Positions 17,195-37,846 of a stretch of DNA of 64,000 nt are shown here, in pieces. A model generated the notes under the pieces. It ran no database searches, was not told the DNA's origin, and worked only from the letters and a program-made list of their open reading frames with translations. Source of the DNA: Candidatus Hadarchaeota archaeon (lineage in GTDB: Archaea > Hadarchaeota > Hadarchaeia > Hadarchaeales > JAGGTB01); assembly GCA_964608515.1 (NCBI GenBank), contig CAZSNS010000004.1, positions 1,600 to 65,599 of the forward strand. The letters run 5' to 3'. Made by a program: the position numbers and the translations under genes. Every line of letters starts with the position of its first letter. Positions within the stretch are counted from its first letter, which is position 1.

Positions 17195-17286
17195 GGGGCG
17201 GTAGTCTAGCTAGGTTTCGGACACCAGCTTCGGGACCAACAAGGCGAAAAAGCTGGAGATCCGGGGTTCGAATCCCCGCCGCCCCA
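17195..17286 (+). tRNA. tRNA-Pro (anticodon CGG) with a 16-nt intron at canonical position 37/38
   Basis: Hand-folded cloverleaf: acceptor GGGGCGG/CCGCCCC, D-stem GTCT/GGAC, anticodon stem CCAGC/GCTGG, loop TTCGGG[intron 17235-17250]A, T-arm CGGGG-TTCGAAT-CCCCG, discriminator A. No encoded CCA. Confidence 0.7.
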
Positions 17287-17301
17287 TCGCACCAAAGGTT
17301 C
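17275..17301 (+). repeat. direct repeat DR1 (3' end of tRNA-Pro plus 15 bp trailer); putative attL
   Basis: CCCGCCGCCCCATCGCACCAAAGGTTC. Repeated at 36903-36929 (26/27 identical) and partly at 37825-37846. Confidence 0.8.
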
Positions 17302-17396
17302 GAATCTTTCCCAATTTTTAGTGAAGGAAAAGGGTCAAGGGGGTTTCAACCTTAAGGACTGTTACAAATCGATTGGAAAAGCCGAATAGTCTCGGA

Positions 17397-17422
17397 TTTT
17401 TTGTTATGGGTGTAACAAAAAA
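17397..17422 (+). repeat. 25-bp palindromic element, copy 6
   Basis: Exact match, 110 bp downstream of the tRNA and abutting the 3' end of the wHTH gene. Confidence 0.9.
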
Positions 17423-17431
17423 TTACTCATT

Positions 17432-17743
17432 TTACTGAGTTTCAACACCAGCGTTTATCATTTCGTTCCATTTTTCTATAACCTCTTGACCATTCTCAGT
17501 TATGGAGAGGACATCACTGTCTTTTCTCCCTATTTCTGGTTCGTCCTTTGCTTCTATAAGATTCATGTCAATTAGTTTTTCTATCCTATCGTAGAGGGTT
17601 TCGTAAGATCCTCCTATTTTTTTCTGTATTTCGGATAATATTCTCTTTTCCTTCTTAACGAATCGAAGAATTTCCACTGTTTTTGAGTTTCGGAGTAGTT
17701 CTTCTAATTTCCGCCTTTTTCTATCTGCAAGTTTTCTACTCAT
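17432..17743 (-). CDS. small winged-helix DNA-binding regulator
   Basis: 103 aa. wHTH-like core (VEILRFVKKEKRILSEIQKKIGGSYETLYDRIEKLIDMNLIE). It is divergent from the ImmA-like gene. Confidence 0.4.
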   Translation of the reverse strand: MSRKLADRKRRKLEELLRNSKTVEILRFVKKEKRILSEIQKKIGGSYETLYDRIEKLIDMNLIEAKDEPEIGRKDSDVLSITENGQEVIEKWNEMINAGVETQ

Positions 17744-17928
17744 TTCATTTCATAATTAATATCCTAAATAAATAAAGTTTACTTAATATGTAAATATTTG
17801 CTCTTATTAGTTTACATATTTACGATATCCGTAAAGAATTAGTTTACATATGGTGTTAAATAGACCAAATAAAGCAAAATTTAAGCGTTAAATATAAATA
17901 ACAGGTAAAGTAAACTTTCTAATGAATT
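17744..17928. promoter_or_regulatory. divergent promoter/operator region with a repeated GTTTAC-containing motif
   Basis: 13-bp direct repeat TTAGTTTACATAT at 17807-17819 and 17839-17851. Inverted AAAGTTTACT (17774-17783) and AGTAAACTTT (17909-17918). The region is very AT-rich. Confidence 0.4.
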
Positions 17929-18849
17929 ATGAAGGCTAAAGAATCTCTATATGATGAATTTGAATGCCTTAGAGTTGGCGAGGGTTTTTCAGAGAAGGAG
18001 GCATTTAGGGAAATTTTAAATCGAGAAGTTAGAAGTAAGTTTACAGATTTAATGAAGGAAATAGAAGACGAGAGGATGTCGCCACCATTTGATTTAAAAA
18101 AAGTGGCTGAAGATTTAGTTTCTCAAGATATAGGAGAAAAAATAGAAGTAATTGAGGAGGATCTTGCTAGAGCCGGTTATGTACGGGAAGATTTTGACAA
18201 TGACGATGGTAAAATAATACATATTGATAAGGATGCTCCGACTTATAGAAAGAATTTTACTTTGGCTCATGAAATTGGACATATATATGGACACCTTATT
18301 ATGAAAAGAAATAAGATAGTCGAATTACGCAAAAATTTAGAAGAAGAATTTTTGGATAATATTGTCGAAAATGTTATGGATGATTTTGCTGGAAGCTTGT
18401 TAATGCCGAAAGGATATATAGAAGATATTGAAGATGAGATAAATAACAATTTGAACTACGATACTCTTATGGATATTTCTAAAAAGTTTAGTGTAAGCAA
18501 GCAGTCTCTAATTATAAGGTTAAATGAATTGGATATACTGGAACATCCTAATATCATTATTCTATTTAAGAATACTTTTTATTTTGACAAAAGGAAACCA
18601 GAAAAGATGAATAGAGATAGGGCTTGGCGTGTTTATTGTCGATCTACCCCTTCCGGATTATTTATCCCAGTCAACGCAAAGGCGGCATCTCTGGGTTTTG
18701 ATGTTGATTATTGGGAAGAGATAAATAGAAGTAATTTTGCCATGCAGGATTTGATAAAAATTGATGGTAATGAAATTGAATTAATCTATAAAGCAAGAAG
18801 GAACAAAAAGTATAGAACTTTACTTAGTTTTGGGAAGATAAGGAAATGA
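17929..18849 (+). CDS. ImmA/IrrE-like HExxH zinc metallopeptidase domain protein
   Basis: 306 aa. LAHEIGHIYGHL (HEIGH). Paired divergently with a small HTH regulator, as in ImmR/ImmA modules of mobile elements. Confidence 0.4.
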   Translation: MKAKESLYDEFECLRVGEGFSEKEAFREILNREVRSKFTDLMKEIEDERMSPPFDLKKVAEDLVSQDIGEKIEVIEEDLARAGYVREDFDNDDGKIIHIDKDAPTYRKNFTLAHEIGHIYGHLIMKRNKIVELRKNLEEEFLDNIVENVMDDFAGSLLMPKGYIEDIEDEINNNLNYDTLMDISKKFSVSKQSLIIRLNELDILEHPNIIILFKNTFYFDKRKPEKMNRDRAWRVYCRSTPSGLFIPVNAKAASLGFDVDYWEEINRSNFAMQDLIKIDGNEIELIYKARRNKKYRTLLSFGKIRK

Positions 18850-18864
18850 ATAACATTTCTTGCT

Positions 18865-21273
18865 TTAGGAATACTCTTCTTCTATTTTTTCCACGATTCT
18901 TTCTTGGATTTTGTCCATTATCTCTACTTTTTTTTCACTTTCCCCTCTTTCACCTATCACATCTACAGTTTCTTTACAAGCCTTTATTATAATATCGGGA
19001 TTTACATCCTCTCTAAATTTCTCAACAGCGGCCGTATTTGCACCACGCTTATCAGGTTCTGAATAGTGTGAAATTTCTGTTGTCCATATATCATCAAAAA
19101 GTTCAAAAAAATCCTCTTTAGAACTAGGTAATTCCTCTCTTGAATATTTATGAATCTCTTCTTCTATTTTTTTGAATATTTCCTCAGTGAGGAGATATTC
19201 TTCTACCTTTCTACTTTTATTCTTTCTCCACTCTTCAAGATAGTTTTCTTTAAGTTTTTCAGTGGGTTTATAATCCATATGGGTTACTACTTTTTCGTTC
19301 TCAATTAAATCTTCTTTCGGTTGATTTAATTCCTCTGCCAAATATTCTAAAAAATTAGTTACAATCTTGCTGACAATAATTTCGTTTTTAGCGTCATCCG
19401 GATGGATGAACAAGAAAAAATTCCATAAGCGTTCATATCTTTCTTCGGATAGCAACTCAATTTCTTTCTGTATGTCTAAGCCTTCACTCCTATTTGTCAG
19501 AGGCTCTAATCTAACTTCGTCATGTTTTTCTTGAATGAATGTTCCTATCTCTTTAGCTTGAGGGTGTCTTTCAGGACAATACACAAAGGTATCCCTTTCC
19601 ACCTTACATTCACTTTCGATTTTTTCTAATTCTTCAGGGGTTGCGTGATAAGTGTCTATAAAATCATTAAGATTACTAGCAAGGTCATTAAAAAGAGTAA
19701 ATGGAATTATTGCTCCTACTTTGTTAAGTTTTCTTTCTTTAAACCTAGTCAGTAATTCATTATCAGCCCTACTTTTTATGTAATGAATCAGTTCGCTATC
19801 AGTAAGATTAAGAATAGACTTTTCTTCACCCTCATAAGGATTAGAGTCCTTAGGTTTTCTCCCTCTTAATAATTTGAGTAACATAGTACTTGCTGCTGCT
19901 TTTGTTTTATGGTAGTATACCCTTTCAGCTAAAGTATGCCTAGTATCCATTATATTGAGTATTTCTGTTATTATATCTCCTTTTTCTGCTCCCCTTTTAC
20001 CATAAATAGATAAACCTAAACGGAGGGGAGAAGTCGTGTCGTATTCAACCATAGAGTTATCTTCTCCTATGATGAAATATCTGAATATTCTCTCGTCATA
20101 CCCTTTCGATTTTATACCGCAGTTTCGTAAGTCCCGTCGAATGTAGTCTAACATATCAGCACAGATAGTATTTCCGACAATATCTGCCATAAAAGGGTGG
20201 AAGATATCTCTTTCAGAAAATTTCTCTAAACTTTTTGAAAGTTTTTCGAATATTTCTTCTACTCTAGGTTGGGATTCACCGTTTTTTACTTCAGATCTAA
20301 TGTTTTCAAGTTTGTCTTCAAAGCTTTCAATTTTACCTGTATGTTTAATTTCATGTTTGAATTTGAGAATAAGGAAGAGCAAGTCTCTAAGATCTTTATT
20401 AGAGATTGGTGATATCCATCTTCCATCATTTTCTTCGGGAAGCCAATCATCCTTCGGATTAACAAGGATTTTTCTAATTTCGCTATTTTCGTCAAAAAGT
20501 AAATACCATAATCTGGGACTTTTTATTTCATCATGCCCTTGAAATTCATCGAACTCATCTTCTAAGGTGTGTCCAAAAGGAATATGGGTTATATCGTGAA
20601 GAAGTGCGGCTATTGAGACAATTTTCTTTATTGATTTCATTTTATTGGAAAATTCTTTGTATGAATCCCTAGTATCTGGATTGGAGTAGTATTTTGAACT
20701 TCCGTTCAAATAAACGTTTAGTTTTCCATCTTCTTTTCTAATATTGTGATGGTATCCCTTATTTTTGTCGTTTAATCTCCACAATCGGTTTTCTTCTACA
20801 ACCTCAACGGTAAAGTTCTCAGAAAGAGTAAGACCGTTTCTCTCGTACTTTTCTTTAAGTGTCGTCGTTTCGGTTTCATTTAAGCTTTCCACTAGATCAC
20901 CTATATTTTCTTCTATAGTAAACAGATACTCATCCAAGAAAATATCAGAAATTTTTGAATTGAATGGTTCGAGATCCAACCTCTTATGGTTTTTCGGTAT
21001 GTTATTACATATTTTTTTAGCTAAATGATATACACCAATTGAATGCTGAAACCTTGTATGTTTGGCTCCTCGGTAAACGAGGTCGGCGAGGTTTAATTGT
21101 TTGAGTCCATCTAATCTTTCAAATTCTTTAGTATCAATTAATTTTTCCGCCAGGCCAGAAAATTCTATGTCTCCCCAGATATTATCTTTATAAATCATTC
21201 TATTCGCACCAGCCATCCCCCTAGAGGAGGGTGATGAGATTTTATGAGTTCGTTTAAATAAAAAACTTACCAT
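18865..21273 (-). CDS. dGTPase/SAMHD1-like HD-domain dNTP triphosphohydrolase with ~300-aa charged C-terminal extension
   Basis: 802 aa. FQHSIGVYHLA (H), AALLHDITHIPFGH (HD), and the DMLDYIRRD motif typical of the Dgt/SAMHD1 family. The conserved N-terminal block (NIWGDIEFSGLAEKLIDTKEFERLDGLKQL) suggests the true start is at ATG 21216 or 21198. Confidence 0.55.
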   Translation of the reverse strand: MVSFLFKRTHKISSPSSRGMAGANRMIYKDNIWGDIEFSGLAEKLIDTKEFERLDGLKQLNLADLVYRGAKHTRFQHSIGVYHLAKKICNNIPKNHKRLDLEPFNSKISDIFLDEYLFTIEENIGDLVESLNETETTTLKEKYERNGLTLSENFTVEVVEENRLWRLNDKNKGYHHNIRKEDGKLNVYLNGSSKYYSNPDTRDSYKEFSNKMKSIKKIVSIAALLHDITHIPFGHTLEDEFDEFQGHDEIKSPRLWYLLFDENSEIRKILVNPKDDWLPEENDGRWISPISNKDLRDLLFLILKFKHEIKHTGKIESFEDKLENIRSEVKNGESQPRVEEIFEKLSKSLEKFSERDIFHPFMADIVGNTICADMLDYIRRDLRNCGIKSKGYDERIFRYFIIGEDNSMVEYDTTSPLRLGLSIYGKRGAEKGDIITEILNIMDTRHTLAERVYYHKTKAAASTMLLKLLRGRKPKDSNPYEGEEKSILNLTDSELIHYIKSRADNELLTRFKERKLNKVGAIIPFTLFNDLASNLNDFIDTYHATPEELEKIESECKVERDTFVYCPERHPQAKEIGTFIQEKHDEVRLEPLTNRSEGLDIQKEIELLSEERYERLWNFFLFIHPDDAKNEIIVSKIVTNFLEYLAEELNQPKEDLIENEKVVTHMDYKPTEKLKENYLEEWRKNKSRKVEEYLLTEEIFKKIEEEIHKYSREELPSSKEDFFELFDDIWTTEISHYSEPDKRGANTAAVEKFREDVNPDIIIKACKETVDVIGERGESEKKVEIMDKIQERIVEKIEEEYS

Positions 21274-21442
21274 TTTAGTTTTAGTTTTGATTTTAATCTT
21301 CGTATTTTCTCTTGATTACTGAAGGGGTTAGATATCTATCAATTATGGAAAAATAAGATAGGAAGGACTTCTTCAGTTGCATGTCGTATTTTTATATTCC
21401 CCAATTTTATTAGTACTGTCCAGTTCTAGAATAAGATGGAAA

Positions 21443-21626: not shown

Positions 21627-21968
21627 TTAGGACTCTACTTCTTCTTTATAACGATCATTTACCTGTTTTTGAAAATAAAGGACAAGGCCGATACAAGCAA
21701 ATATTATGGCAAATTGGATTATCAAGACTGCACATAATTTATAAGAGATTATCAGTAAAGAGCCCCTTGCTTCTAGAATCCAACTACCTACACCTATAAT
21801 TATCATTATGGCAATTAATGGTGAAACTGGAATCCAGATACTTACATATTTACGGCGATTATCGAGAGCATTCTTGTAGCGGTCGTTTTCGTGCCTATCG
21901 TAATTGTCCATAAGGGAGTGCTGTGAGGCAGCCCAAGACTGAGCTCTACTAAACACAAAGCCAGCCAA
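21627..21968 (-). CDS. small integral membrane protein (2-3 TM)
   Basis: 113 aa. Hydrophobic segments PVSPLIAIMIIIGVGSWIL and LCAVLIIQFAIIFACIGLVLYF. Confidence 0.4.
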   Translation of the reverse strand: MAGFVFSRAQSWAASQHSLMDNYDRHENDRYKNALDNRRKYVSIWIPVSPLIAIMIIIGVGSWILEARGSLLIISYKLCAVLIIQFAIIFACIGLVLYFQKQVNDRYKEEVES

Positions 21969-22011
21969 GATTCCTAAAGCCGTTAATGTTAAAGGTAGGA
22001 CTTCTATATTG

Positions 22012-22620
22012 TCACTCTCCTTGGTTCTCGATTTCTTCTTCTATCCAATCCAGAAGATTTTTAGCATGAGTTTTAGCTTCCACTTTGAACTTTTTTTTAT
22101 GCCCACTATGGCTCACAGTTTTGGGCTTAATCGCCCCCTCAACACTTTCATATTCTCCCTCATGTTTGTCAAAGATCTCTCTGAGTAAATCCCATAATTC
22201 AGATTCTAGTAAGATATAGTGGTCTTCAACTTCCTCTCCGAATTTTTTAACAAGTTTCTCAAATTTTTTCTTTAAATCCTTAAACATATTACCTTTTAAA
22301 TTACTATATCTGTTAGGTTCTTCAGTTTTCAAAGCTCTAATTAAATAAGTCGCCTGTCCGTCAGTTATGTTAAACTTATTGGTTAACACATCTCTTTCTG
22401 GCTTCCATCCAAATTCTTCACATAAGGGCCATATTATTCTGGCCATAAGCTCCGAGGTACTTGAGGGGCGAGGCTTTTCTGCTGTAATCCACTCAAAAAA
22501 GAACCGTTCCCCCTCCTCTTTCACAGTATCTCTTATAACTTCATCTTCTTCCTCGTCCCCAATCTGAAACTGATTCTTTAAATCTACAAATAGTTCATCA
22601 ATTGATTTCCTATCAGGCAC
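22012..22620 (-). CDS. hypothetical protein
   Basis: 202 aa, charged, no recognisable motif. It lies between the HD gene and the membrane gene on the same strand. Confidence 0.35.
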   Translation of the reverse strand: MPDRKSIDELFVDLKNQFQIGDEEEDEVIRDTVKEEGERFFFEWITAEKPRPSSTSELMARIIWPLCEEFGWKPERDVLTNKFNITDGQATYLIRALKTEEPNRYSNLKGNMFKDLKKKFEKLVKKFGEEVEDHYILLESELWDLLREIFDKHEGEYESVEGAIKPKTVSHSGHKKKFKVEAKTHAKNLLDWIEEEIENQGE

Positions 22621-22857: not shown

Positions 22858-23664
22858 TTAGCTATCTCTTCTCTCTTCAAAATAGTCTTGAGCTTTCACT
22901 TCAATAGAGAAAGGTTCAATATTTTCACAATCCTCTAAGACAGAGTTCACTTTTTCAATTTCTTCTCTAAGTTCTTCTATTTGTTTCCCCGAAACTTCTT
23001 CCTCATGAACTATCACTAAGATTTTTCCCCCTTCTCTCACTAAAACAGATTCTATATTCATGTGGCCCTTCCATATTTCCTCATCTAGTTCTTCTTGAAG
23101 AATATCATAAACTACTTCTGGTGCTCTACGATTATCAATGTCACATGAATCAGCTATACGGAATAAAGTAGCTAACAATTGGACTTTTATCTCATCTCCG
23201 CAACTGTGAGTACGTTCTGGAATATCATCTAATTCTTCTTCTGAACGATGTCTTTTAACCACTGTCTTAAGACCACTTTCAACAGGATTATCTAAATCAA
23301 ACAAGTAGTTTTGTCTCTTTAATGTATCCCACATTTCACAAGATTTTTCGGCATGACTTTCTCTATCCTCCAAGTTCCCAATATCATGGATCCAAGCTGA
23401 AGCATATAAAATAAAAATTTCTTTTTCATTCAATTCCCCCCCTGACTCTTGATAAATATCAATAACATCATTGAGGTATCCAATAATTCTCTTAGAATGC
23501 TCATAACCGTGATCTGTAAATTTGGGAATTTCTCGCGGTATATATCTCAAAATATAAGTAATTGCCTTTTTTATCACATACAGTTTATGTTCGTATGCAG
23601 TGCTTCCATTTCCCTGATTAGCTAGTTTTTTGTATTTTTGATTATTGTTCCCCATCAACAACAA
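22858..23664 (-). CDS. HD-domain metal-dependent phosphohydrolase/nuclease-like protein
   Basis: 268 aa. H (DHGYEHSKRI), HD (AWIHDIGN), H (HAEKS), H (RHRSEE) and D (RIADSCD) in HD-superfamily order. Confidence 0.5.
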   Translation of the reverse strand: MLLMGNNNQKYKKLANQGNGSTAYEHKLYVIKKAITYILRYIPREIPKFTDHGYEHSKRIIGYLNDVIDIYQESGGELNEKEIFILYASAWIHDIGNLEDRESHAEKSCEMWDTLKRQNYLFDLDNPVESGLKTVVKRHRSEEELDDIPERTHSCGDEIKVQLLATLFRIADSCDIDNRRAPEVVYDILQEELDEEIWKGHMNIESVLVREGGKILVIVHEEEVSGKQIEELREEIEKVNSVLEDCENIEPFSIEVKAQDYFEERRDS

Positions 23665-24341: not shown

Positions 24342-25457
24342 ATGGGTTTAGACGATTTAGAGAAGTATAAAGAGGAAGGAGAGACCTTTGGCTTAAAAGA
24401 CATAATAGATGAAAAAGAGACTTTTGATTTAAAAGAGGAATTTGAGGAGTTTATTGGAGATCATATCAAAGAACTATCTGAAAAAGATAATATTATTGCA
24501 CTAAAGAGAAAAGGGAATGTTTTTTTTGAGCATTTGAGGGAAAAATTTCCATCTTTAAAAACCCTTGGACATCTTTCACAAAATCATATCCATGTAAAAA
24601 AGGAAGAATTAGACAATTCTAAGATAATAATATTCGATGATTCAATTGATGAGGGAAATAATTTTGGAAATATCATGAAAGTATTTGAGAAACTAAATAT
24701 AAATCCGAAAGAAGTTTTAGTTCTAAATGTAATAGTGAATGAAAATGCAATCGAAAAAATAAAAGAAAAATATCAAGATGGTGACCTAAAATTTTTATAC
24801 CTCGAATCAGTTTCAGATGAGGAATACGGTAAGCTGTATCCTAAATGCATGTTTGGATATATAGATTATATAAATGAATCCTTAAACAAAGATTTTTCAA
24901 TTATTACCTTAGAATTGGATAAGAGAATTAACATTGAAGAGCTTAAAGAATGCTTTAATGAAAAATTTGATATAATGGATTTAGAACATAAATTAGATTT
25001 GGAGAGTTTAGAAAGAAATAAAGAACATATAGTCTCGAAGATTTCTTTGGACGCTGAAAAGTTTTTTAATAATAAAAGGGAAAGTTTCCCAGAAATAGAA
25101 AATATGAAGCAAACGAAAGTAAGAATTTTCTTAAGAGATAGAGAAACTAACAGCTCTATTGATATTATACCAATTTTAATCCCAGAAAATCCTCCTGTAA
25201 TGGAGTGTAAAGATAAAGAGATATGTAAACTTGATGAATTTAAGAAAAAACATCTAGAAAACTCAGAGCCTGATGAAGAATGCTTGGAAAGATACTGTAT
25301 AAAGTGTTTACAAGAAAACCTATCTAAAGATTTCGATAATAAATTTCAAAGCTATTTAATAAAAAAATTGAAAAAAAAGGGTATTCAAATAATGAGAAGC
25401 AAGACTGAATATCCAATAATTCCTGATTATTTCCCCCTTCTTGAATTTCCAACCTAA
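24342..25457 (+). CDS. PRTase-like (phosphoribosyltransferase type I fold) domain protein with Cys-rich C-terminal extension
   Basis: NIIALKRKGNVFFEHL followed by KIIIFDDSIDEGNNFGNIMKVFEKL...VLVLNVIV resembles the PRPP-binding loop (hhhhDDhhxTGxT) of type I PRTases. C-terminus has CKDKEICKLD...CLERYCIKC. Confidence 0.35.
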   Translation: MGLDDLEKYKEEGETFGLKDIIDEKETFDLKEEFEEFIGDHIKELSEKDNIIALKRKGNVFFEHLREKFPSLKTLGHLSQNHIHVKKEELDNSKIIIFDDSIDEGNNFGNIMKVFEKLNINPKEVLVLNVIVNENAIEKIKEKYQDGDLKFLYLESVSDEEYGKLYPKCMFGYIDYINESLNKDFSIITLELDKRINIEELKECFNEKFDIMDLEHKLDLESLERNKEHIVSKISLDAEKFFNNKRESFPEIENMKQTKVRIFLRDRETNSSIDIIPILIPENPPVMECKDKEICKLDEFKKKHLENSEPDEECLERYCIKCLQENLSKDFDNKFQSYLIKKLKKKGIQIMRSKTEYPIIPDYFPLLEFPT

Positions 25458-25981: not shown

Positions 25982-26872
25982 ATGAGCTTACGAGATTTAT
26001 ATTTGGATAGATGGAAACGAGTGAGGGCCGCGGGGATTAAAATATATGATAATAAAGGTCTAGAACAGGCAATTAATTTTATAAATAAAAATTTGAATGA
26101 TCCTCGTAAAATTGCAGGATTGGAAGCTGAACTTCTCTTCTATGATGAGTACAAGGAAAAGCATTCTTTAATACCTACTACGCTGATGGATGATATGCTA
26201 AAATGTGATTTTGCTGGTGATTATAAAGGTGGAGCGGCTCGTTTTGATGTGACGACGAACCCCGAATATAAAGATCTTTCCGAATATGAGAGTCTTCAAG
26301 AGCAGGGAGAATATTATATCGTCGTCGTTGATAGAGAGGGGAAAGATTTCCAAATATTAGATATAAACTTTCCTACATGTTCCTTTTGTGAAGGGTTAGA
26401 GGATAAAAAAGGGAGGCTTATTCCGATAGTAAATATTTCTAAACTTGGTGGAGAGTCAGTATGTAGCTCTCGTTTGAGATTTTCTAGAATATGTTCTTAT
26501 TGTGGAAAAGAAGAGCAGATTGCCTATGATGAACTATTGGAATTTTCTCCTTCATCAATCCGTTATGAGGTGGAGAAAAGATTTGAAGAGCGACTTAGGT
26601 GGGCAGAGGAAGAACGTGGTGAAGAAAAAAGGAAAGAAATAGAGAAAGAATATGAAGAGACATTAGAAGAAGAGCTAGAAGGTTATGCTAGTACTATTAA
26701 AGATTTCTGTAAAAATCAGTATGGAGGAATACCTAGGTTAGTTGGTAGTCCTGGGGGTAAGATGATTCATGGAGAAGTGGTGGAACGCTTTGAGCCCTTT
26801 TGGGTGCATCCGACTATTGATGAGTTTTTTGATCCGTTAGCAATTTCTGATCTTGTTCCCCCCCGTCCATAA
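25982..26872 (+). CDS. hypothetical Zn-finger protein (two CxxC pairs)
   Basis: 296 aa. CSFCEG...CSYCGK, with a charged coiled-coil-like C-terminus. Confidence 0.3.
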   Translation: MSLRDLYLDRWKRVRAAGIKIYDNKGLEQAINFINKNLNDPRKIAGLEAELLFYDEYKEKHSLIPTTLMDDMLKCDFAGDYKGGAARFDVTTNPEYKDLSEYESLQEQGEYYIVVVDREGKDFQILDINFPTCSFCEGLEDKKGRLIPIVNISKLGGESVCSSRLRFSRICSYCGKEEQIAYDELLEFSPSSIRYEVEKRFEERLRWAEEERGEEKRKEIEKEYEETLEEELEGYASTIKDFCKNQYGGIPRLVGSPGGKMIHGEVVERFEPFWVHPTIDEFFDPLAISDLVPPRP

Positions 26873-27533: not shown

Positions 27534-27881
27534 GTTTGCTAAAACTAGATATTCTCCCTGCTTTTTTTCCAGCGAATCCTCTTGAAAAGCTATGAATTCT
27601 TTTTTGCCAATTAAAGGCCTTAAATGTTCTTAAAAAAATAATGAAACCTCCTTTCCTAATGTTATTAAAAAATGATGGCTCTCTGCCGAATTTTAATTAA
27701 TTACTTGGATAGAAGTTGAGGGTTTAAGTGGTTTTTCAAGGGCAATTTATTTAAAAATGGAGTGTTGTTCCCATAGAAGTGGTGGCAGAAAGAGGCTATC
27801 AACCCTGATGAGCACATAGAAACCCTTTTCAAGATATCAAAACTTAATAATGTGAGAAAGAAGTTAACATTAAAGTGAGGG

Positions 27882-28532: not shown

Positions 28533-29022
28533 AGAATGCTTTACCCCAATAGAAGAGAAACATCTAACAAGGACTCTTGATTTGATAGGAATTGATAAAA
28601 GTCATCCAGAAGACCACACTATGATTTCAGAAACCACAGGACGGTTTGGATTCTTTGCATCTGTTTCGACTTGTGAACCACATCTTAAAGAAGAAGACTT
28701 GTTTGAGAAAGATATTCGAAATAATGTGACCAAAAAAATGAAAGAGAGAGCAAAAAACATCCCGACGTTAAAGAATTCTCTTGAACTTTCGATTAAAAAA
28801 ATGAAAGAATTTCTAAATTCGAAAGATATAAAATATGAATTAGAAGCTGATGTTTGGCAACCTGTGGAGTTTGAGGATAGCGGTGGAGAAAACTCCATAA
28901 CTATTCATATAGAATGTGATGATTTTGATAAAAGGAGAGAGATAGAGGACGAAATTCGAGATATAGTAAGGGAATCTGAAAAAGATGATTTAATCATATA
29001 TACCATGATTAAACGATTTTAG
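28522..29022 (+). CDS. hypothetical protein, middle gene of operon
   Basis: ATG at 28522 is preceded by AAGGAGG 10 nt upstream. 167 aa. Confidence 0.4.
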   Translation: MNHRECFTPIEEKHLTRTLDLIGIDKSHPEDHTMISETTGRFGFFASVSTCEPHLKEEDLFEKDIRNNVTKKMKERAKNIPTLKNSLELSIKKMKEFLNSKDIKYELEADVWQPVEFEDSGGENSITIHIECDDFDKRREIEDEIRDIVRESEKDDLIIYTMIKRF

Positions 29023-29032
29023 GTTGAATATT

Positions 29033-29422
29033 ATGCCGGTTAATCCGAAGGATTTTTTTGAGATTTCGCAAATGTTTACGGCCGAGATTGGTAGTGAGAT
29101 TTCTTATAGAACTGCTATAAACCGTGTTTACTATAGCTTGTTTCATCTTGTGAAAAACACTACTAAGGAGATTGAGGGTTACAAGTACAAAGGGAAGTCA
29201 AAAGATCATGGTATAACCATAGAGGCTGTAAAGGATATTTGCGGTAAAGACATAGCTGATGATTATCAAAGTTTATTTGAAGCAAGGAAAGACAGTGATT
29301 ACAATTTAGACAAAAAGATAGATGAATTAGAATATGATCATTGGAAACATAAATACAAAGAAATAAGTGAAAAATTTCGCAAGGAAGCGCCGGAATATGA
29401 GAAACTTGAGAAGTTCATTTAG
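29033..29422 (+). CDS. HEPN-domain protein
   Basis: Rx6H motif in TAINRVYYSLFH, in an alpha-helical context. It starts 11 bp after the preceding stop. Confidence 0.45.
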   Translation: MPVNPKDFFEISQMFTAEIGSEISYRTAINRVYYSLFHLVKNTTKEIEGYKYKGKSKDHGITIEAVKDICGKDIADDYQSLFEARKDSDYNLDKKIDELEYDHWKHKYKEISEKFRKEAPEYEKLEKFI

Positions 29423-29538
29423 GGATATAGTTTCTGCTGATGATGCTGACTTAAATATTCCACTTTTTTAACGTCACCAGATACATAAATTGATATGAAT
29501 TCTGGCTTCCGACCGATGTTCACAAAAACAAAAGCCGG

Positions 29539-29994
29539 ATGAGACATAAGTCTGATGAGGAAAAAACCGATATAGGAGACGAAGAGATAGATTTAAGAAT
29601 TGACTCAGTGGGAGCTAAAAACGAACTCAAAGAGTTGTTTAAAGAGAAAGAGTTCTACGACCCAGTAAGGGCGAAGGGGGCTTCCGAAGAGGTACAATCT
29701 TGGCCTAAAACGGTCAAGAAACATATGGAGGGATTGATTGGAGAGGAAGTTGATGGTGGTAGGATTGAAAAAAGCTCTACTGGAGGTTTAAATTTTTATC
29801 AGAGAAATTACTGTTCTACGGTCTGCGAAATGAAAAGGAAAGCGAAGAAGAAATGTGATGAAGAAGATGACGAGGCAGCCTGCGAAAAGAAAGAAACGCT
29901 TGGAAAGATTGAAGATGATCTTAACTGCAGTTGTCAAGTAAAGCCCCACCGTACTGAGTATTCCTCTCCAGAAAGATGGAATCGTCCTGCTTAA
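29539..29994 (+). CDS. hypothetical Cys-containing charged protein
   Basis: 151 aa. CSTVCEMK...CDEEDDEAACEK...CSCQ. Confidence 0.3.
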   Translation: MRHKSDEEKTDIGDEEIDLRIDSVGAKNELKELFKEKEFYDPVRAKGASEEVQSWPKTVKKHMEGLIGEEVDGGRIEKSSTGGLNFYQRNYCSTVCEMKRKAKKKCDEEDDEAACEKKETLGKIEDDLNCSCQVKPHRTEYSSPERWNRPA

Positions 29995-30164
29995 TTAACG
30001 GAGGTGAGCTTGTGGATATAGTAGAAGCGACTGGACAAGGTATAGGTGCCTTGATTTTAATTATTGTTTTTTTAAAGTATATTTTACCTGCTCTTTTGAG
30101 TATTTAATAAGTAAGGAGAGTATCTTATTAAGAAAAAGTAATAAATTTGAGAAATTACAAACGA

Positions 30165-30485
30165 TTATCCTAAATTTAGTTCATTTTTAATGTATTCTTC
30201 TACCTTTGGCATTTGTACTTTTAAAAAAATTTCGTCTAGCACATGCCCATAGATAAAATACAATTTGGTAAATCGATTTTCACCAGCAACAAAGACCAGC
30301 TTTATGCCTTTATTACTTAATTTTTTAAGCTCTTTTTCTTTGTTTTTTCCGATTCTTGAGTTAATTCTATCTATCTTTATGGCTATTTCGGGTCTTCTAT
30401 AATCTTTAAGAGCAAAATCAAAATATAAGCTATACCCTGCTAGTTGCCAGTGTTTAAAATATTCAATATTGTTTCGATCTAGCAT
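30165..30485 (-). CDS. small DUF559/Vsr-like (PD-(D/E)xK fold) endonuclease-like protein
   Basis: 106 aa. YSLYFDFAL...EIAIKIDR...KGIKLVFV parallels the YIVDF / IELDG / VLRF blocks of DUF559. Confidence 0.3.
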   Translation of the reverse strand: MLDRNNIEYFKHWQLAGYSLYFDFALKDYRRPEIAIKIDRINSRIGKNKEKELKKLSNKGIKLVFVAGENRFTKLYFIYGHVLDEIFLKVQMPKVEEYIKNELNLG

Positions 30486-30901: not shown

Positions 30902-31198
30902 ATGATGGTATATTATTACATAAAGTGTGTCAACGAAGACGGAGATGGAAATATTGCATCGGTGGGGTATGGTAATGATTTGGACGATAAGATAAATAAG
31001 GATCTTAAGCCGAAAGAAGAGGTTATTTCCGATATTGACGAAGAGGGTCGTTTAGTGAAGACTGCATATTATTCCGATCAAAAGAGAGAATGGGTGACTG
31101 GTGATGAAGTTCACACAGTTGAGGGGGAGTACATAAGAACTGACGGGAACGATATTGAGTCCGATAACCTAGGCGAATTACAGAGTTGTCCGAGCTAA
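30902..31198 (+). CDS. hypothetical small protein
   Basis: 98 aa ORF with GGAGG 8 nt upstream. Confidence 0.3.
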   Translation: MMVYYYIKCVNEDGDGNIASVGYGNDLDDKINKDLKPKEEVISDIDEEGRLVKTAYYSDQKREWVTGDEVHTVEGEYIRTDGNDIESDNLGELQSCPS

Positions 31199-31609: not shown

Positions 31610-32803
31610 TTACAGTTTATTCAAAAGTGTATCGTAAATATCATCAATTGTGGCTTCTAGACCCCAAGCGAAGTTTGCAACTCTTCTGAAAATATCTGAA
31701 GTTATTCGAAATCTATTAGGTCTTCTAAAATTATGATTTAGGTTCTTTTCCCCCTCTACTTTTTCCCTAATCGACTCTAACTTCTCTGCATTTTCCGGTT
31801 TTCCTTCGGTTGGTTTTAATTCATCCATAACTCTTCCAGGAATCATGTTTGAGAAGGATATCCGGAAAATGTAGTCCCAATTTGACCTACCCATTGTGTC
31901 CTGATAAACTTCATTTAATACATTCATTAGTTTCTCTCTATTTTTTGTCAGTATATTAAGCAGTGCGTCTAATCCTCTCTGGTCAAGAAAATCTAGAGAT
32001 CTCTTAAGGAAAAATAATAAATCATCATGACTCAATGAATCCAGTTTATTACTTTGTTCGTAAATCAGCTGTAGCATTCTCGCTCCCTTGGAGAGAGTTA
32101 CAGCCCTATCTTTCATTTTCCAAACTAATGGTAGGAGTTCCTTTACTTCATTTTTGGTTATTTCTTCGTATTCTCCGTCAGAGTCGATTACACCATTATA
32201 TAATTTAGTTCTAATATTCCTTACCGATTCTCTAAAAGGAGAATTACCCACATAGAGGTTATAGATGAGATTGGATCTTTTAAACTCCCTTTCTAAGTCT
32301 TTTGTAGTCCAGAGCTCTACCTCGGGTTTTTCATCAGCTGTTTCTAAAAATGATTGGGTGGCACCCTTTGTATATAAATAGATTTTTCTATCAGCATCTT
32401 GTTGATGGAGTAATTCAAGTTGTGATATATCTTTTTGCATTGGCTTTCTTTTCACTCCGATCAGAATAGTTTCTGAATTATTATCACATTCGAGATCTAC
32501 GCCTTTTTCGTGTGATGGGTCGTTTTCGTGCCGCCATCTTACTTTATATCCTAGGCACTCAAAGTGTATTTTTAAGAGTGCGTGAATCTCTTTTTCCTGA
32601 AAATCGGTCCAAGGGATTTTTGTCTCTTCCCACTCTCTTAGCTCAGGCGGCAGAGATTCTTCCGAGTCCTCATCAAAATTTTCATTCATTTTTATAGGTC
32701 TATCTTCATTTGAGTAGGCTAATGATTTAACTGTAACTAAATAGATGAATAGAATAACTAAGATTTTTTTGATAAGAAAGAGAATTAAAAAACGAAATGT
32801 CAT
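31610..32803 (-). CDS. N-terminally membrane-anchored hypothetical protein with possible restriction-endonuclease-like core
   Basis: 397 aa. N-terminal TM helix. HFECLGYKVRW...KGVDLECDN...ETILIGVKRK resembles Mrr/NERD-like PD-(D/E)xK cores (weak). Confidence 0.3.
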   Translation of the reverse strand: MTFRFLILFLIKKILVILFIYLVTVKSLAYSNEDRPIKMNENFDEDSEESLPPELREWEETKIPWTDFQEKEIHALLKIHFECLGYKVRWRHENDPSHEKGVDLECDNNSETILIGVKRKPMQKDISQLELLHQQDADRKIYLYTKGATQSFLETADEKPEVELWTTKDLEREFKRSNLIYNLYVGNSPFRESVRNIRTKLYNGVIDSDGEYEEITKNEVKELLPLVWKMKDRAVTLSKGARMLQLIYEQSNKLDSLSHDDLLFFLKRSLDFLDQRGLDALLNILTKNREKLMNVLNEVYQDTMGRSNWDYIFRISFSNMIPGRVMDELKPTEGKPENAEKLESIREKVEGEKNLNHNFRRPNRFRITSDIFRRVANFAWGLEATIDDIYDTLLNKL

Positions 32804-33722: not shown

Positions 33723-33872
33723 GTGATGTAGAATTGCTAGGATTAATAGCAGTATTTGCCGTAATATTTGGAATGATTTGTAATTGATGGAGTAATCAAT
33801 AATAGAGTCTGCTAGGATTTCCGATAATATTCCTTTAAACGATATATCGGCCGAATCGCCGGAGGGAATCTT

Positions 33873-34802
33873 TTGACTCCTTCTCGTTACAGTAAACAAG
33901 CAAGAAGCAAAGTTCTTAAGGAGGAATTTAATTATCTAGAATCGATGGATATACAATTAAAAGATTCAGAATTAATTACTGATACTGTTAGAAATGTTAA
34001 TGAAGATATTGGGAATATAGTATCTAACGCAGCGTGGGTACTTGATGGGGCTACTAGTCTTTCTGATAAAAATATAACTCCACTAAAAACAGAAGCAAAA
34101 TGGTATGTTGAAAAACTCAATCATTATTTTGAAAATCACATGATGGATAACTCAAGTAAAGAACTTTCTTCAATAGTTAAAGAGTCAATTAAGAAGACAC
34201 GATTAGAGTTCTTTGATTTTTTAGACAAAGAGATAGATGAAGTAGATGAACCAGCTGCTAGTTGTGCCATGGTTAGGTGGGAGAATAATATATTAGAGTA
34301 TTTCGTTCTATGTGACTGCACATTTGTTCTTTTTAGAAACGGAAAGGTGGTAAAAAAAATAACAGATGACAGAATCGACAAGTTCGAAGAAGAGATTAGA
34401 AAAAAAATTAAGCATTTGATTGAAGATAGGAGAATGTCTCTCACGAATGCTCGTAGAAAAGTTTTCCCAATAATCAAAAAAGTTCGGCGTTTAAGAAACG
34501 AGGCAGGGAATTATTGGGTTCTCAGTTTTGACCCAAAAGCTGTAGAAAAAGCAATTCATGATAAGATCGAACTAAAGAAGGGCGATGAAGTCTATCTTTT
34601 TACCGATGGATTTGGTCGTATAGTAGATAAATACTCAGAGTTTGAGGACTGGCAAGAGGCAATTGAATATATAAATAGCCAAGGAGGAGAAAAAGTTTTT
34701 TCTTTGCTTCGAAGAATAGAAAAAAATGATGTGGAAGGAGAAAAATACATTCGAACGAGGGCATCCGATGATGCCACCCTTTCTATTCTAAAGTTTGGTT
34801 AA
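33873..34802 (+). CDS. possible PP2C/SpoIIE-like (PPM-family) phosphatase-like protein
   Basis: 309 aa. WVLDGATS (DGxxG-like), YLFTDGFGR (DGxWD-like), ASDDATL (terminal DN/DD block). Their order matches PPM motifs but the match is weak. Confidence 0.3.
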   Translation: MTPSRYSKQARSKVLKEEFNYLESMDIQLKDSELITDTVRNVNEDIGNIVSNAAWVLDGATSLSDKNITPLKTEAKWYVEKLNHYFENHMMDNSSKELSSIVKESIKKTRLEFFDFLDKEIDEVDEPAASCAMVRWENNILEYFVLCDCTFVLFRNGKVVKKITDDRIDKFEEEIRKKIKHLIEDRRMSLTNARRKVFPIIKKVRRLRNEAGNYWVLSFDPKAVEKAIHDKIELKKGDEVYLFTDGFGRIVDKYSEFEDWQEAIEYINSQGGEKVFSLLRRIEKNDVEGEKYIRTRASDDATLSILKFG

Positions 34803-34845
34803 CTCACTTTAATTACAAAAATTTTAATTAAATTAGGAGGGTAGA

Positions 34846-35949
34846 ATGGGATTTAATGAAGATTTAGTTTTTGAAGAGGAGATTGAGAATCTAGAAATGA
34901 GTGACTCTGTAAATCATGAGGATATTGTTGATTTCCTTCAAAATTTGCCCGAACCAAGAAATATAGAATTTCAAGTAAATATAGCCAACTTAGTACAGAG
35001 AGTGTCTGAATCATCATTTTATCTTGAGAAAATATTAGAAGATGGCTTATCGAAAGATATTCGATTCAAGGCTTTTTATGCTCTTCAAACCTATTACAGA
35101 AGAAATAAGGATTTAAGTGACTTAGAAGAACTTTACAAAAATTATAGTCACATTTTTTCCGACCGAACCATGTACAAAGTCCTCCATTCCGTTCTTCTGC
35201 GTCTAAGAAATAAACCGGAGTCTATTTTCCAAGCAATTGAAGAACAGAGCGTTGTTTTAAACGAAATAAGTGATAATCCCGGTATATATCAAGCAAAAGC
35301 AAATACAATCGTACAAGCAATTGAAGATGGTATTATTTCCGATGATAGGCGGGATCAATATCTTAACGATGCAAAAAAAGCTATCAGAAATGCAATTAGT
35401 ATATGGCCGGATTACGGTAAGTATCATGTGACTCATGGACGGATTTTGAAATTAGAAGGAAAATATGAGGCTGCTCGTGAAGAAATTGAAAAGGGCATAG
35501 ACCTTGAAGAAGCTAATAAGGAAGATTATGCTATTAGAATTGCTAGTTTCCAACAGCACCTTTTAAAAGTTGATTTTGAGGAATACCATAATGAATTAGA
35601 AAAGCAAATTGATAGGGAAGAAAAAAGGGTTGAGAGTTTAAGTAAAGATTTGGATGATGCCTTGCAGGGTTTTCGAAAATCCAATCTACAATTTTTGGGC
35701 TTTTTCGCTGCTATTTTGGGTGGCGTGATAATAACAATGCAAGTAGCTACAAACTATCCAGCAATACAAGCTGGTCCTCTAATTCTAATAATATTTGGAG
35801 GGCTATCTACTTCTTTTGGCTTGTTTAGTTTGATTGTTCCGAGAAAAGAAGAAACAAATCTCGGTCTAAAAATAGTTGGTGTAGGAATACTAATACTATT
35901 ATTCGGATTCATTATTTTGTGGATTCATTATTTTTTTCTCAGTATATAA
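34846..35949 (+). CDS. TPR-like repeat protein with C-terminal polytopic membrane anchor
   Basis: 367 aa. Helical repeat region with W/Y-rich turns, then 3-4 TM helices. Confidence 0.35.
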   Translation: MGFNEDLVFEEEIENLEMSDSVNHEDIVDFLQNLPEPRNIEFQVNIANLVQRVSESSFYLEKILEDGLSKDIRFKAFYALQTYYRRNKDLSDLEELYKNYSHIFSDRTMYKVLHSVLLRLRNKPESIFQAIEEQSVVLNEISDNPGIYQAKANTIVQAIEDGIISDDRRDQYLNDAKKAIRNAISIWPDYGKYHVTHGRILKLEGKYEAAREEIEKGIDLEEANKEDYAIRIASFQQHLLKVDFEEYHNELEKQIDREEKRVESLSKDLDDALQGFRKSNLQFLGFFAAILGGVIITMQVATNYPAIQAGPLILIIFGGLSTSFGLFSLIVPRKEETNLGLKIVGVGILILLFGFIILWIHYFFLSI

Positions 35950-36304
35950 ATAGGGAATCTAATTAGTTTCAATCCGATAAATTTGCCTTTCGGGCTTCCG
36001 AAAATCGTGTTCCTAACTAAACAATGGCAATTTTATGGTTAAGAGATTTTGTAGGATTGCTGTTGCAAGATTTTATTCTCCTTCTAATTTTCGGAAATTC
36101 CAATCTTTTGGAATTTTCGGCAAGCTGATTGGATACTTTCTAGATAGGTAATATTGAGGAAGGGAAAATGAAGACTAAAAAACTGATATTTAAAACCCCC
36201 CGAAACCCTTTAATAAAATAAGTGATGAACTCTGCCTTGGCTCCACTCGTCTTCTTCCTCCCGTGCCAATGCTTTCTTTTTTCTCTCTTTGAAGGACTTC
36301 CAGC

Positions 36305-36589
36305 TCATCGTTTCTCTTTCACCTTGTTCCGCTTTAAATCGATAATGAGCTTCTCCACTCGTAACTCGAAAACGTTCCTCTTGGCTTCCGGATTGTAATC
36401 CTTTTCCACGATCTCTAGGTCGGACAATCTGTTCAATGATTTGTAGAAGCTAATCCTGTTCCCAAGCTCGTCACACTCCTCCCTCAGCTCCATTGCAGTT
36501 TTCGGACCATCCGCTAGGTGTTCCAAGAGCGCCCTGCTATCCTTTAAAGAGATTTCCTTCAGAAGCTTCTCCGTTTCCATTTTCCCCAA
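36305..36589 (-). CDS. small winged-helix transcriptional regulator
   Basis: 94 aa. LLEHLADGPKTAMELREECDELGNRISFYKSLNRLSDLEIVEK is typical of ArsR/TrmB-like wHTH. Confidence 0.45.
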   Translation of the reverse strand: MGKMETEKLLKEISLKDSRALLEHLADGPKTAMELREECDELGNRISFYKSLNRLSDLEIVEKDYNPEAKRNVFELRVEKLIIDLKRNKVKEKR

Positions 36590-36902
36590 TCAAGTGTCCA
36601 AACCCGAATTCAAATGGGCTTGTTGTCTGCCGGGAAACGAAAAAAAGCATAGAAAGAATCTATCTCAGTTGGAAAATATATTGAGGAAATAGAGTTCGTT
36701 TGAGGGCTGTGTTGCGGAAGGGTGAGGGAAAGGAGAAAGGGAAGGATGGAATCAGCATGTATGTCCGCAAAGTCCTAGTTCTTGTAGTTCGGAAGTTTCT
36801 CCGCCCGGTCTGAGAAAAACCTTTATTCCAAGAAGACGCTATTTACTACCGAGAGGGGTTGAAGGCTCTAGAAGGGAGATTCGAACCCGTTCGTAAGGCT
36901 TT

Positions 36903-36929
36903 CCCGCCGCCCCATCGCACAAAAGGTTC
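36903..36929 (+). repeat. direct repeat DR2 (copy of tRNA-Pro 3' end plus trailer); putative attR
   Basis: CCCGCCGCCCCATCGCACAAAAGGTTC versus DR1: 26/27 identical. There is no tRNA body upstream. Confidence 0.8.
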
Positions 36930-37078
36930 TAAACTTGTGTGAAGAGAAAAACCCATTTACCACTTTTTTCGATTTTACTTCTTAAGATACAAAGCTAAAG
37001 GGATTGGAAACAGTATATCTTGAGAACCTGGTTCAACCTTATTCTCATCAAAAAATTGCTTAAACAAAAGAATGTTTT

Positions 37079-37663
37079 TCAAGATTTTTCGAGAGACTTT
37101 CTTATTTTCTTCAATTCTTTCAAAATTTCGGGTTGGAGACCTTCCTCGCTCTCTTCGGTTGCTGTGGTGTAGGGTCCTGTTTCTCGCTTTTTGACTTGGT
37201 TTAGAATAGTTTCTTTGATCTCTTCGTAGTTCTGCACGCAAAATATTTCTGCTTCGGGCAAGGATCTTTGCCCTGAGTGTCCGGCTGTTTCGATCTTGTC
37301 TTTGCCGAGCCCGAAGAACCGGTATATCGGTCCTTGTTCCACTGTCACGTTCATTATGAGTCTATAAGGCACGTTTTGAGATTTTTTGAACCATACACCT
37401 TTTTTGACTATTACTCTGTCTTCGGTCAGTTTGAATGAGATTGAAGAATAAAACTTCGAAATCCAGTAGAGGATGAAAATTGAAGGAGGTAAGAATCCAA
37501 GCCAAGTAAGACCTGTACCGAGAACAGCTTGTTCTCTGGGGAAGAAAAGAAGAAGTATAACTGTAATGAAGAGAGGAATCAACAAGATAAATCCGACATA
37601 GACCCGATAGTAGGTCTTCATACTCGGATCAGGTTTAAACGACTCATTTACTTCTACGGTCAT
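37079..37663 (-). CDS. bacterial-PH-like (YdbS/YdbT, DUF304-type) membrane protein
   Basis: 194 aa. Two N-terminal TM helices then a PH-like domain (VIVKKGVWFKKSQNVPYRLIMNVTVEQGP). Confidence 0.45.
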   Translation of the reverse strand: MTVEVNESFKPDPSMKTYYRVYVGFILLIPLFITVILLLFFPREQAVLGTGLTWLGFLPPSIFILYWISKFYSSISFKLTEDRVIVKKGVWFKKSQNVPYRLIMNVTVEQGPIYRFFGLGKDKIETAGHSGQRSLPEAEIFCVQNYEEIKETILNQVKKRETGPYTTATEESEEGLQPEILKELKKIRKSLEKS

Positions 37664-37824
37664 AAGACTCCCCCGAAACGATTATAGACTTCATATCTTT
37701 TTCAATACGAACGATTTATAAATTCTAGTAAAATCTGAGTTCTCATCTGACTTGTTACTAATAAAGCGAATTTAATCCGCAGACGGTCTCTTAAGAATAC
37801 GTTAAGAACTTTTCGTTCCATTCT

Positions 37825-37846
37825 CCACCCCATCGCACCAAAGGTT
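37825..37846 (+). repeat. direct repeat DR3 (partial third copy of tRNA-Pro 3' end/trailer)
   Basis: CCACCCCATCGCACCAAAGGTT. 19 bp are identical to 17282-17300, including the CACC found in DR1 but not DR2. Confidence 0.75.

Follow-up and report, generated by a model that had tools for sequence, protein, structure and literature searches.

The locus described here lies in a 64,000-nucleotide stretch of contig CAZSNS010000004.1 from a Candidatus Hadarchaeota archaeon, which we call the window (positions below count from its first letter), and consists of about 20.5 kb of DNA in a hypervariable slot 3' of a tRNA-Pro(CGG) gene, beside orc1/cdc6. Hadarchaeota are an uncultured archaeal phylum of the deep subsurface, and the Orc1/Cdc6 protein encoded beside the tRNA confirms that the DNA belongs to this group (Hadesarchaea). 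With moderate confidence we interpret this DNA as a decayed, tRNA-linked island that would be derived from integrase-mediated insertion and would now be immobile. The island holds about 24 plausible open reading frames (ORFs), among them no housekeeping gene, in agreement with a preliminary description that had been made from the letters of the same DNA; about 10 of these ORFs have no family assignment. Its left anchor is the tRNA gene itself (17195-17286, + strand), which is intact and carries a 16-nt intron. The gene was found by Rfam (RF00005, 52 bits) and, with the same coordinates, by ARAGORN once introns were allowed (-i), a default ARAGORN run having overlooked it; both results bear out the intact, intron-containing tRNA-Pro(CGG) ending at 17286 that had been proposed. 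It is the sole tRNA of the window, and an orthologous tRNA is found 3' of orc1 in each of the related genomes L001, L025, L027-L030, L153 and L154.

The 3' end of this tRNA and the trailer that follows it recur twice further along the window. The 19-mer CCCCATCGCACCAAAGGTT is present three times, always on the + strand: at 17282 and 37828 with no mismatch and at 36910 with one. In 100 dinucleotide-preserving shuffles, not a single match to it was obtained with up to three mismatches allowed. Copy 1 (17275-17319, +) is made of the last 12 nt of the tRNA and about 33 nt of trailer (TCGCACCAAAGGgTC...TTTCaCAtTTTTT), the latter being single-copy in L025. Copy 2 (36903-36933, +) contains 12 nt of the tRNA 3' end and 15-22 nt of trailer, and copy 3 (37825-37865, +), which marks the right edge of the variable region, contains 8 nt of the tRNA end and 33 nt of trailer; copy 2 extends deeper into the tRNA and copy 3 deeper into the trailer. 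Copies 1 and 2 are identical at 26 of 27 positions (17275-17301 compared with 36903-36929), the figure originally given, and ARAGORN with introns allowed found no tRNA body at copy 2 or copy 3. The third copy had been described as exact over 19 bp at 37825; it is, and it proved to be longer, since 34 of 41 positions (83%) are identical between 17279-17319 and 37825-37865, through TTTCC(C)AATTTTT. A longer tRNA-like sequence to the left of copies 2 and 3 was considered and rejected as not significant. We also observed an exact 12-mer, TTTCGTTCCATT, at 17461-17472 (about 160 nt inside the left end) and at 37811-37822 (directly left of copy 3); with a nominal p of about 0.01-0.03 after multiple testing this is probably a chance match, though it could be an arm-type site.

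Comparison with related genomes places these repeats at the borders of a lineage-specific segment. The closest available relative (L025, GCA_964400045.1; Orc1 87% identical, DNA about 83% identical) is collinear with the window from 7830 to 17304, orc1 and the tRNA included, with weak homology continuing to 17385. Collinearity restarts at 37922-37941, at a small Zn-ribbon gene (37941-38120, -; tblastx to L001 and L025) which is the first conserved host gene on the right, and runs onward through genes for a metallo-beta-lactamase (MBL)-fold protein and a metallophosphoesterase. On the right, the non-collinear segment ends 75 nt beyond the copy-3 core; homology to L001 restarts at 37971. In L025, L001, L027-L030, L153 and L154, the tRNA end with its trailer occurs as a single copy within 10 kb. 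As the trailer motif is present once in L025, it is a native feature of this clade; extra copies are found in the window genome alone. The possibility that relatives share a conserved, repeated trailer motif is excluded, because L025 and four other relatives have a single tRNA-end copy.

What follows the tRNA differs from lineage to lineage. In L025 the slot holds 7.9 kb with genes for adh_short, flavin reductase, GH30/LamG, CCG/Fer4 and DUF498 proteins. In L001 and L027-L030 (Orc1 79-80% identical) it holds 7.4 kb encoding a ferredoxin, a geranylgeranyl reductase, a PfkB kinase, a cupin, GDE_C, rhodanese/ABM and sulphur transport proteins, and lacks the MBL gene. In L153 (Orc1 72%) tRNA-Pro is joined to genes that are located at 49.7-54.7 kb in the window, and in L154 (Orc1 72%) it is followed by yet another gene set. 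Synteny is thus broken recurrently on the 3' side of tRNA-Pro(CGG), a plasticity hot spot whose content differs across at least five lineages; the side carrying the M28 peptidase gene, orc1 and the tRNA is kept in most of them and is absent in L154. An ancestral position of adh_short next to the tRNA was rejected, as the genes in L025 and L153 share just 25% identity. To the right of the island, the MBL-fold gene (38560-39522, +) is present in L025 (81% amino acid identity) and absent in the L001/L027 lineage, where a lone 146-aa ORF stands between the Zn-ribbon region and the metallophosphoesterase gene; the absence of the MBL-fold gene there indicates that variability reaches slightly past the island.

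The island is compositionally foreign. Its GC content is 0.342, compared with 0.384 and 0.398 in the flanks, its tetranucleotide distance to the flank mean is 0.021 (flank windows, 0.0116 +/- 0.0022), and its GC at third codon positions (GC3) is lower (p=0.026). The same strain has also been assembled independently (L022, GCA_905333165.1, contig CAJOTG010000042.1), and this assembly is 100% identical to the window over 37765-40469, a segment that includes the copy-3 junction. Since both flanks are syntenic with relatives and the copy-3 junction is reproduced in L022, a chimeric assembly of the window is unlikely. Beyond that segment, inside the helicase gene, L022 itself switches to unrelated sequence (2706-2891) which looks, by eye, like the C-terminal part of a P4/D5-type primase (...EREGIFRWIVEGYRDF...); this switch is probably a chimeric join and gives a hint that the community also harbours a mobile element.

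We then asked whether the island encodes the means of its own movement. The region 17017-38620 was translated in six frames, and the resulting 115 stop-to-stop ORFs of at least 55 aa were searched with Pfam and PHROGs. No integrase, recombinase or transposase family was matched, and NCBIfam added nothing. The lack of integrase, transposase and capsid genes noted earlier therefore holds at the level of hidden Markov models, and a pseudogenised integrase among ORFs of that size was rejected on the same results. A split integrase of the SSV type was rejected as well, no ORF running through copy 1 or copy 2; an 82-aa ORF over copy 3 (37702-37950, -) had no family match and has the wrong orientation for the bounded element. 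There were neither inverted repeats of at least 9 nt between the ends nor any Cas1 or transposase family, as would be expected of a casposon or transposon. As to a provirus, PHROGs returned no integrase, capsid, terminase or portal and one marginal match to a 'minor head protein' (E 0.004). In the right flank (42.9-62 kb), Pfam found no integrase and all genes were housekeeping; the left flank, judged by collinearity and not scanned directly, is collinear with annotated housekeeping genes of the relatives. The preliminary description had also entertained an unrecognised recombinase, for which we obtained no positive support: all island proteins of at least 150 aa without a family assignment are acidic (pI 4.4-5.8), as DNA recombinases typically are not. 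For one of the island proteins, of 296 aa, a single-sequence AlphaFold2 model had a mean confidence score (pLDDT) of 39 and was unusable. A cryptic recombinase fold among these proteins without relatives (ORFans) is unlikely. Searches for the repeat as an attachment (att) site elsewhere gave no match in IMG/VR, either with the att 19-mer or with a tRNA-end 20-mer; the seven occurrences of the 19-mer in a metagenome collection were all unrelated chance sequence, and a scan with a 14-mer returned chance matches alone and was uninformative.

On balance we favour an origin by integration, and the order of events could be as follows. At least two circular elements would have integrated successively, by a single crossover that was most likely site-specific, at the 3' acceptor strand of the tRNA and its trailer. 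Each integration would have left one extra copy of the site, namely copy 2 (36.9 kb) and copy 3 (37.8 kb). The integrase modules would later have been lost, deletions would have trimmed older material between copies 2 and 3, and the island would now be fixed, without autonomous movement. Insertion of a circle by a single crossover, whether site-specific or homologous, keeps the order of the surrounding sequences, so that the native downstream flank belongs after the last copy; the restart of collinearity just past copy 3 is consistent with such an order-preserving insertion. We favour integration over hot-spot recombination because it alone accounts for two copies of exactly the tRNA end in the same orientation, of which one lies at the boundary of collinearity.

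Several observations weigh against this interpretation. A truly empty site was found in none of the relatives examined, each slot holding another gene block; the expectation that an empty site would show tRNA-Pro followed directly by the MBL gene was not borne out, the relatives' slots being filled with different blocks of 7-8 kb. In the same strain, exact-protein look-ups gave two short contigs (L022 and L023) that were occupied or uninformative in this respect. Neither a free nor an integrated element with this att site turned up among viral or metagenome contigs. Most of the repeat is lineage-specific trailer, the tRNA contributing only 8-12 nt, and the sequences to the left of copies 2 and 3 resemble neither one another nor the tRNA body. 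PADLOC models run on the island proteins detected no complete known defence system. Two features of the junctions point the same way. The first is the tRNA-proximal flank (17287-17385, +), either native DNA or a shared element arm, which is 61.6% identical over 99 ungapped nt to L025 11293-11391; between +34 and +100, 38 of 66 nt match the L025 trailer, compared with a null expectation of 22.8 +/- 2.3 (p<0.0005), and the flanks of copies 2 and 3 are not homologous to that trailer beyond +22 and +33, respectively. A native-like flank that stays at copy 1 and is not displaced to the distal repeat fits solely with similar attP arms, shared by successive elements and the L025 block, or with entry of the island downstream of the trailer by another route. 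The second is a flavin reductase remnant (approximately residues 13-34, KVEPGSQDILFPIPLALYL; 36984-37050, -) which falls between copies 2 and 3, close to copy 2, its truncation point being about 50 nt away from that copy. It spans 57-67 nt in frame, has 12 of 19 amino acids identical, and matches L025 14162-14222 by blastn with 79-82% identity (E 1e-9 to 3.5e-7); in its slot, L025 carries an intact copy of the gene (13631-14257).

Insertion at the tRNA, as first proposed, is partly supported: a lineage-specific presence in a collinear backbone, a tRNA end that is single-copy in relatives, and foreign composition agree with it, but the borders do not form a clean attL/attR pair, given the native-like flank of copy 1 and the gene remnant between copies 2 and 3. 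Successive integration would be reconciled with these borders under three conditions: the L025-like block would have been an older insertion in the common ancestor, bounded on its right by copy 3; the 19.6-kb island would have integrated later at the tRNA, making copy 2; and related elements would share similar attP arms, deletions having then removed most of the older block.

A different explanation, which we consider possible but clearly less probable, is that an integrase was never involved and that the slot was reshuffled by homologous or illegitimate recombination with DNA of relatives, through double-crossover gene replacement or end-joining. The tRNA and about 130 nt of trailer would then be untouched native DNA, including a palindrome at 17396-17422; the island would start at about 17423-17431, and copies 2 and 3 would have arisen by partial duplication, or by import of fragments, of tRNA-end sequence and would not be att scars. 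Such a history would accommodate the orthology of the copy-1 flank with the L025 trailer as far as +100 nt, the occurrence of the terminator-like palindrome (at +110 here) after tRNA-Pro in L001 and L027 as well, and the remnant of an L025-slot gene between copies 2 and 3. It also agrees with the relatives' slots, whose blocks are ordinary metabolic genes without repeats or integrases, and with the lack of a recognisable integrase in the window. It offers, however, no simple explanation of how precisely the tRNA 3' end with its trailer came to be copied in part at two distinct places and in one orientation. One of these copies (copy 3) lies within 75 nt of the point where collinearity restarts, and the repeats are confined to the one genome that has an island of foreign composition. 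The present data do not separate integration, which we hold to be the more probable, from recombination without an integrase, to which we give tentative credence.

The palindrome itself, TTTTTTGTTA-TGGGTG-TAACAAAAAA, resembles a bidirectional terminator and is not specific to the island. It is 26-27 nt long, with a 10-bp stem and T6/A6 flanks, and eight near-identical copies, apparently all intergenic, occur in the 64 kb: at 5094-5120, 7004-7030, 7827-7853, 8419-8445 and 8515-8541, which form a cluster of five at 5.1-8.5 kb, at 17396-17422, and at 46226-46252 (+) and 47239-47265 (-). Further copies are found in L025 (148-194, 1934-1957 and 2519-2551), L001 (3173-3199) and L027 (11346-11371), those of the last two genomes including the ones just 3' of tRNA-Pro. 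The palindrome matched no Rfam family; its appearance is that of a bidirectional terminator or of a small repeated element.

It is unlikely, in our estimation, that the island is still a functional mobile element, moved by an integrase encoded elsewhere and acting in trans or by a recombinase outside current profile libraries. The repeats are well preserved, at 26 of 27 and 19 of 19 positions, the ORFs without family assignment could harbour such an enzyme, and the pair formed by a winged helix-turn-helix (wHTH) regulator and an M78 peptidase at the left end (see below) resembles switches of the ImmR/ImmA type. Such switches belong to integrative elements. The M78 gene, however, pairs with an HD-domain gene in non-mobile contexts, Pfam, PHROGs and NCBIfam gave no recombinase signal even in the six-frame ORFs, the larger unassigned proteins have an acidity unlike that of DNA recombinases, and no ORF spans a repeat as in a split SSV-type integrase. 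A truncated host-type gene within the repeat-bounded region and the differing left arms of copies 2 and 3 also argue against continued mobility. A specific form of this idea, in which one of the roughly 10 ORFans is a recombinase of an unrecognised family that targets mostly the lineage-specific trailer and not the conserved tRNA body, appears very improbable to us; if true, it would represent a new archaeal integration system. Last, that the repeats are an artefact, be it of chance, of a general tRNA-trailer motif or of a chimeric join, is largely refuted and hardly credible: the window does come from a 68-kb metagenome-assembled contig, and the trailer motif is conserved after tRNA-Pro in L025 and partly in L153, but none of the 100 shuffles had any match, the motif is single-copy in relatives, both flanks are collinear so that two false joins at syntenic positions would be required, the copy-3 junction recurs at 100% identity in an independent assembly of the same strain, and the exact 19-mer turned up merely seven times in the metagenome collection, all in unrelated sequence.

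The most clearly recognised genes of the island lie at its left end. An 802-aa HD phosphohydrolase with a SAMHD1/EF1143 fold (18865-21273, -; Pfam HD), predicted to be a deoxynucleoside triphosphate (dNTP) triphosphohydrolase, faces an M78/IrrE-family, CapP-like metallopeptidase (17929-18849, +; Pfam Peptidase_M78 2e-14, 53.8 bits; PADLOC capP 1.6e-20 and RmrA 3e-15). Searched against the PDB with phmmer, the HD protein matched the SAMHD1 family (8e-16 to 1e-12), and its family profile matched SAMHD1 at 5e-27. The metal ligands H77, H226-D227 and D373 are invariant in 82 homologues. In Foldseek, an AlphaFold2 model (pLDDT 84.9) aligned with SAMHD1 orthologues and Enterococcus faecalis EF1143 over the full length of these targets (probability 1.0; TM-score normalised to the target, 0.60-0.69). 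By its modelled structure, then, the HD protein has a SAMHD1 fold. No match to this protein was found among plasmid records.

At each of the three other loci that were examined, a homologue of the HD gene is followed directly by a gene for an M78 homologue of the window peptidase (28-37% identity). The four loci (window 17929-21273; L024 894-3962; L031 1132-4324; L032 7001-9987) encode HD proteins of about 700-800 aa and M78 proteins of about 300 aa. In L031 the pair adjoins a Piwi/pAgo gene, and in L032 one for PycTM. Its two members are convergent in the window but co-directional in the other loci. HD and M78 thus form a conserved two-gene module in defence surroundings, a candidate defence module of which we found no description.

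Divergent from the M78 gene is the first gene of the island, which encodes a wHTH regulator (17432-17743, -; Pfam HTH_45, 26.2 bits with a cut-off of 25.5) and is not conserved with the HD-M78 pair. The 185-nt region between the two (17744-17928) contains about five copies, in both orientations, of a AGTTTACATAT-like motif, AGTTTAC(A/T)TAT, and the exact 14-mer ATTAGTTTACATAT occurs in it twice, 32 nt apart. This array is operator-like and would be compatible with a repressor-operator switch. By analogy with CapH/CapP or RosmerTA, the M78 peptidase would lift repression upon a signal of stress or infection and would so control the HD enzyme or its expression; the HD enzyme, from its predicted activity, would deplete dNTPs. 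Judging from its domains and from the recurring gene neighbourhoods, the cargo most likely provides functions against viruses or plasmids.

The remaining genes are less readily classified. To the right of the HD gene are a 113-aa membrane protein and a 202-aa acidic protein with no significant family match (21627-22620, -), an HD-CE domain protein (22858-23664, -; Pfam PF24391, 9e-25), and a weakly matched PRTase-like protein with a Cys-rich C-terminus (24342-25457, +; Pfam UPRTase 23.7 bits with a cut-off of 27; PADLOC PRTase_III-A 6e-5). These are followed by the 296-aa protein mentioned above, a Zn-ribbon protein (25982-26872, +) whose only matches are sub-threshold ones to HEPN_RES_NTD1 and a ClpX zinc finger, and by six small or medium ORFs without family assignment (26976-30485). 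One of the six encodes a 132-aa protein with a weak likeness to HEPN (29024-29422), which has an R-x6-H motif in its translation and matches PADLOC HEPN_IX at 0.005. Further right we found a DUF3892 protein (30902-31198, +; Pfam 2e-8) and a nuclease-like protein with a Mrr_cat (PD-(D/E)xK) domain and an unassigned C-terminal domain (31610-32689, -; Pfam 24.5 bits with a cut-off of 21), for which a word-seeded search of 5.8 billion clustered proteins returned a single homologue (58% identity). The gene for a PP2C-family phosphatase (PP2C_2, 28.3 bits) is followed by that for a TPR-like protein (weak match) with putative C-terminal membrane helices, the hydrophobic stretch being recognised by eye (both within 33873-35949, +). 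The last gene before copy 2 encodes a PadR-like wHTH protein (36305-36589, -; weak, Pfam PadR 17.3 bits with a cut-off of 27), and the sole gene between copies 2 and 3 encodes a bPH_2 membrane protein (37079-37663, -; Pfam bPH_2 1.6e-18).

Matches were thus found for the domains originally listed for the island, but the PRTase, HEPN and right-edge PadR matches fall below curated cut-offs. PADLOC matches comprised capP/RmrA, both to the M78 protein, and weak ones to dGTPase, PRTase_III-A, HEPN_IX and a Csa3/CARF-like wHTH. The label 'defence-like' given to the cargo is partly supported: one module, the SAMHD1-fold HD protein with the CapP-like M78 peptidase, is convincing, and what remains consists of weak domain matches that make up no complete PADLOC system.

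The island shares with the tRNA-targeting integrative elements of archaea and bacteria the direct repeats of a tRNA 3' end, the gene left intact, a lineage-specific insert of atypical composition, and several repeat copies that suggest tandem or successive insertions. It differs from them in having no integrase or integrase remnant, in a repeat that is mainly trailer (8-12 nt of tRNA), in a native-looking tRNA-proximal flank, in the host-type gene remnant inside, and in the lack of replication, conjugation or virion genes. It therefore resembles an integrative element by its bounding repeats and departs from that class in the two traits of a defining integrase and displacement of the flank. 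The sublocations within tRNA genes that serve for integration were classified by Williams (2002, as cited in PMC10121019).

Islands at tRNA genes and defence hot spots are textbook matter in bacteria, and core defence hot spots have reportedly been recognised in a study of Pseudomonas aeruginosa. Like such hot spots, the slot described here is fixed beside a conserved gene and a tRNA, has cargo that differs with each lineage, and contains nuclease, HD, HEPN and regulator domains. It differs in its host, which belongs to an uncultured archaeal phylum, in the metabolic genes that fill the slots of relatives, and in the lack of a canonical PADLOC system. Variable occupancy, foreign composition and, for the HD-M78 pair only, the gene neighbourhoods are those of a canonical defence island; the recognised systems of such an island are missing. 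In Escherichia coli, 18 defence hot spots are at tRNA loci, and some of the occupants have no identifiable means of mobilisation (PMC10121019).

The left-end module invites comparison with immune operons regulated by CapH/CapP (bioRxiv 10.1101/2022.04.27.489752) and with RosmerTA (RmrT/RmrA; bioRxiv 10.1101/2022.05.11.491447), in which an M78/IrrE-type peptidase likewise stands beside a small HTH protein and a potentially toxic effector. The order of effector and then peptidase in the other genomes with the HD-M78 pair is that of RmrT and RmrA. Unlike CapH, which is of the XRE type, the HTH protein of the window is a winged-helix protein (HTH_45/PadR-like) with no detected similarity to CapH and, as noted, is not a constant partner of the pair; an N-terminal HTH such as that of RmrA is missing from the peptidase. 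In the window, HD and M78 are encoded convergently, and we found no SAMHD1-like HD effector described for either system. With SAMHD1, EF1143 and the anti-phage dGTPases, the HD protein shares the HD fold, the H...HD...D residues and a full-length structural match, in addition to weak PADLOC and NCBIfam dGTPase matches. It differs from SAMHD1 and EF1143 in a sequence identity of about 15%, in its obligate pairing with an M78 peptidase, in an inserted low-confidence segment at about 115-200 (predicted beta strands) and in a helical C-terminal extension at about 650-802, and its scores with the anti-phage dGTPase models fall far short of their curated cut-offs.

A limited literature search found no paper specifically on such an island in Hadarchaeota. 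As a decayed, integrase-less, tRNA-linked island it is ordinary in kind and new in its host, and it involves no new integration mechanism; unless a recombinase is later found, it raises no new mechanistic question about integration. The slot between tRNA-Pro(CGG)/orc1 and the conserved genes to its right provides a defined hot spot that can be mined for archaeal immune genes, with modest practical value. The HD-M78 module occurs in both archaea and bacteria, with pAgo and Pycsar components as neighbours, and may reasonably be considered a candidate system of defence by nucleotide depletion that would be under protease-based control.

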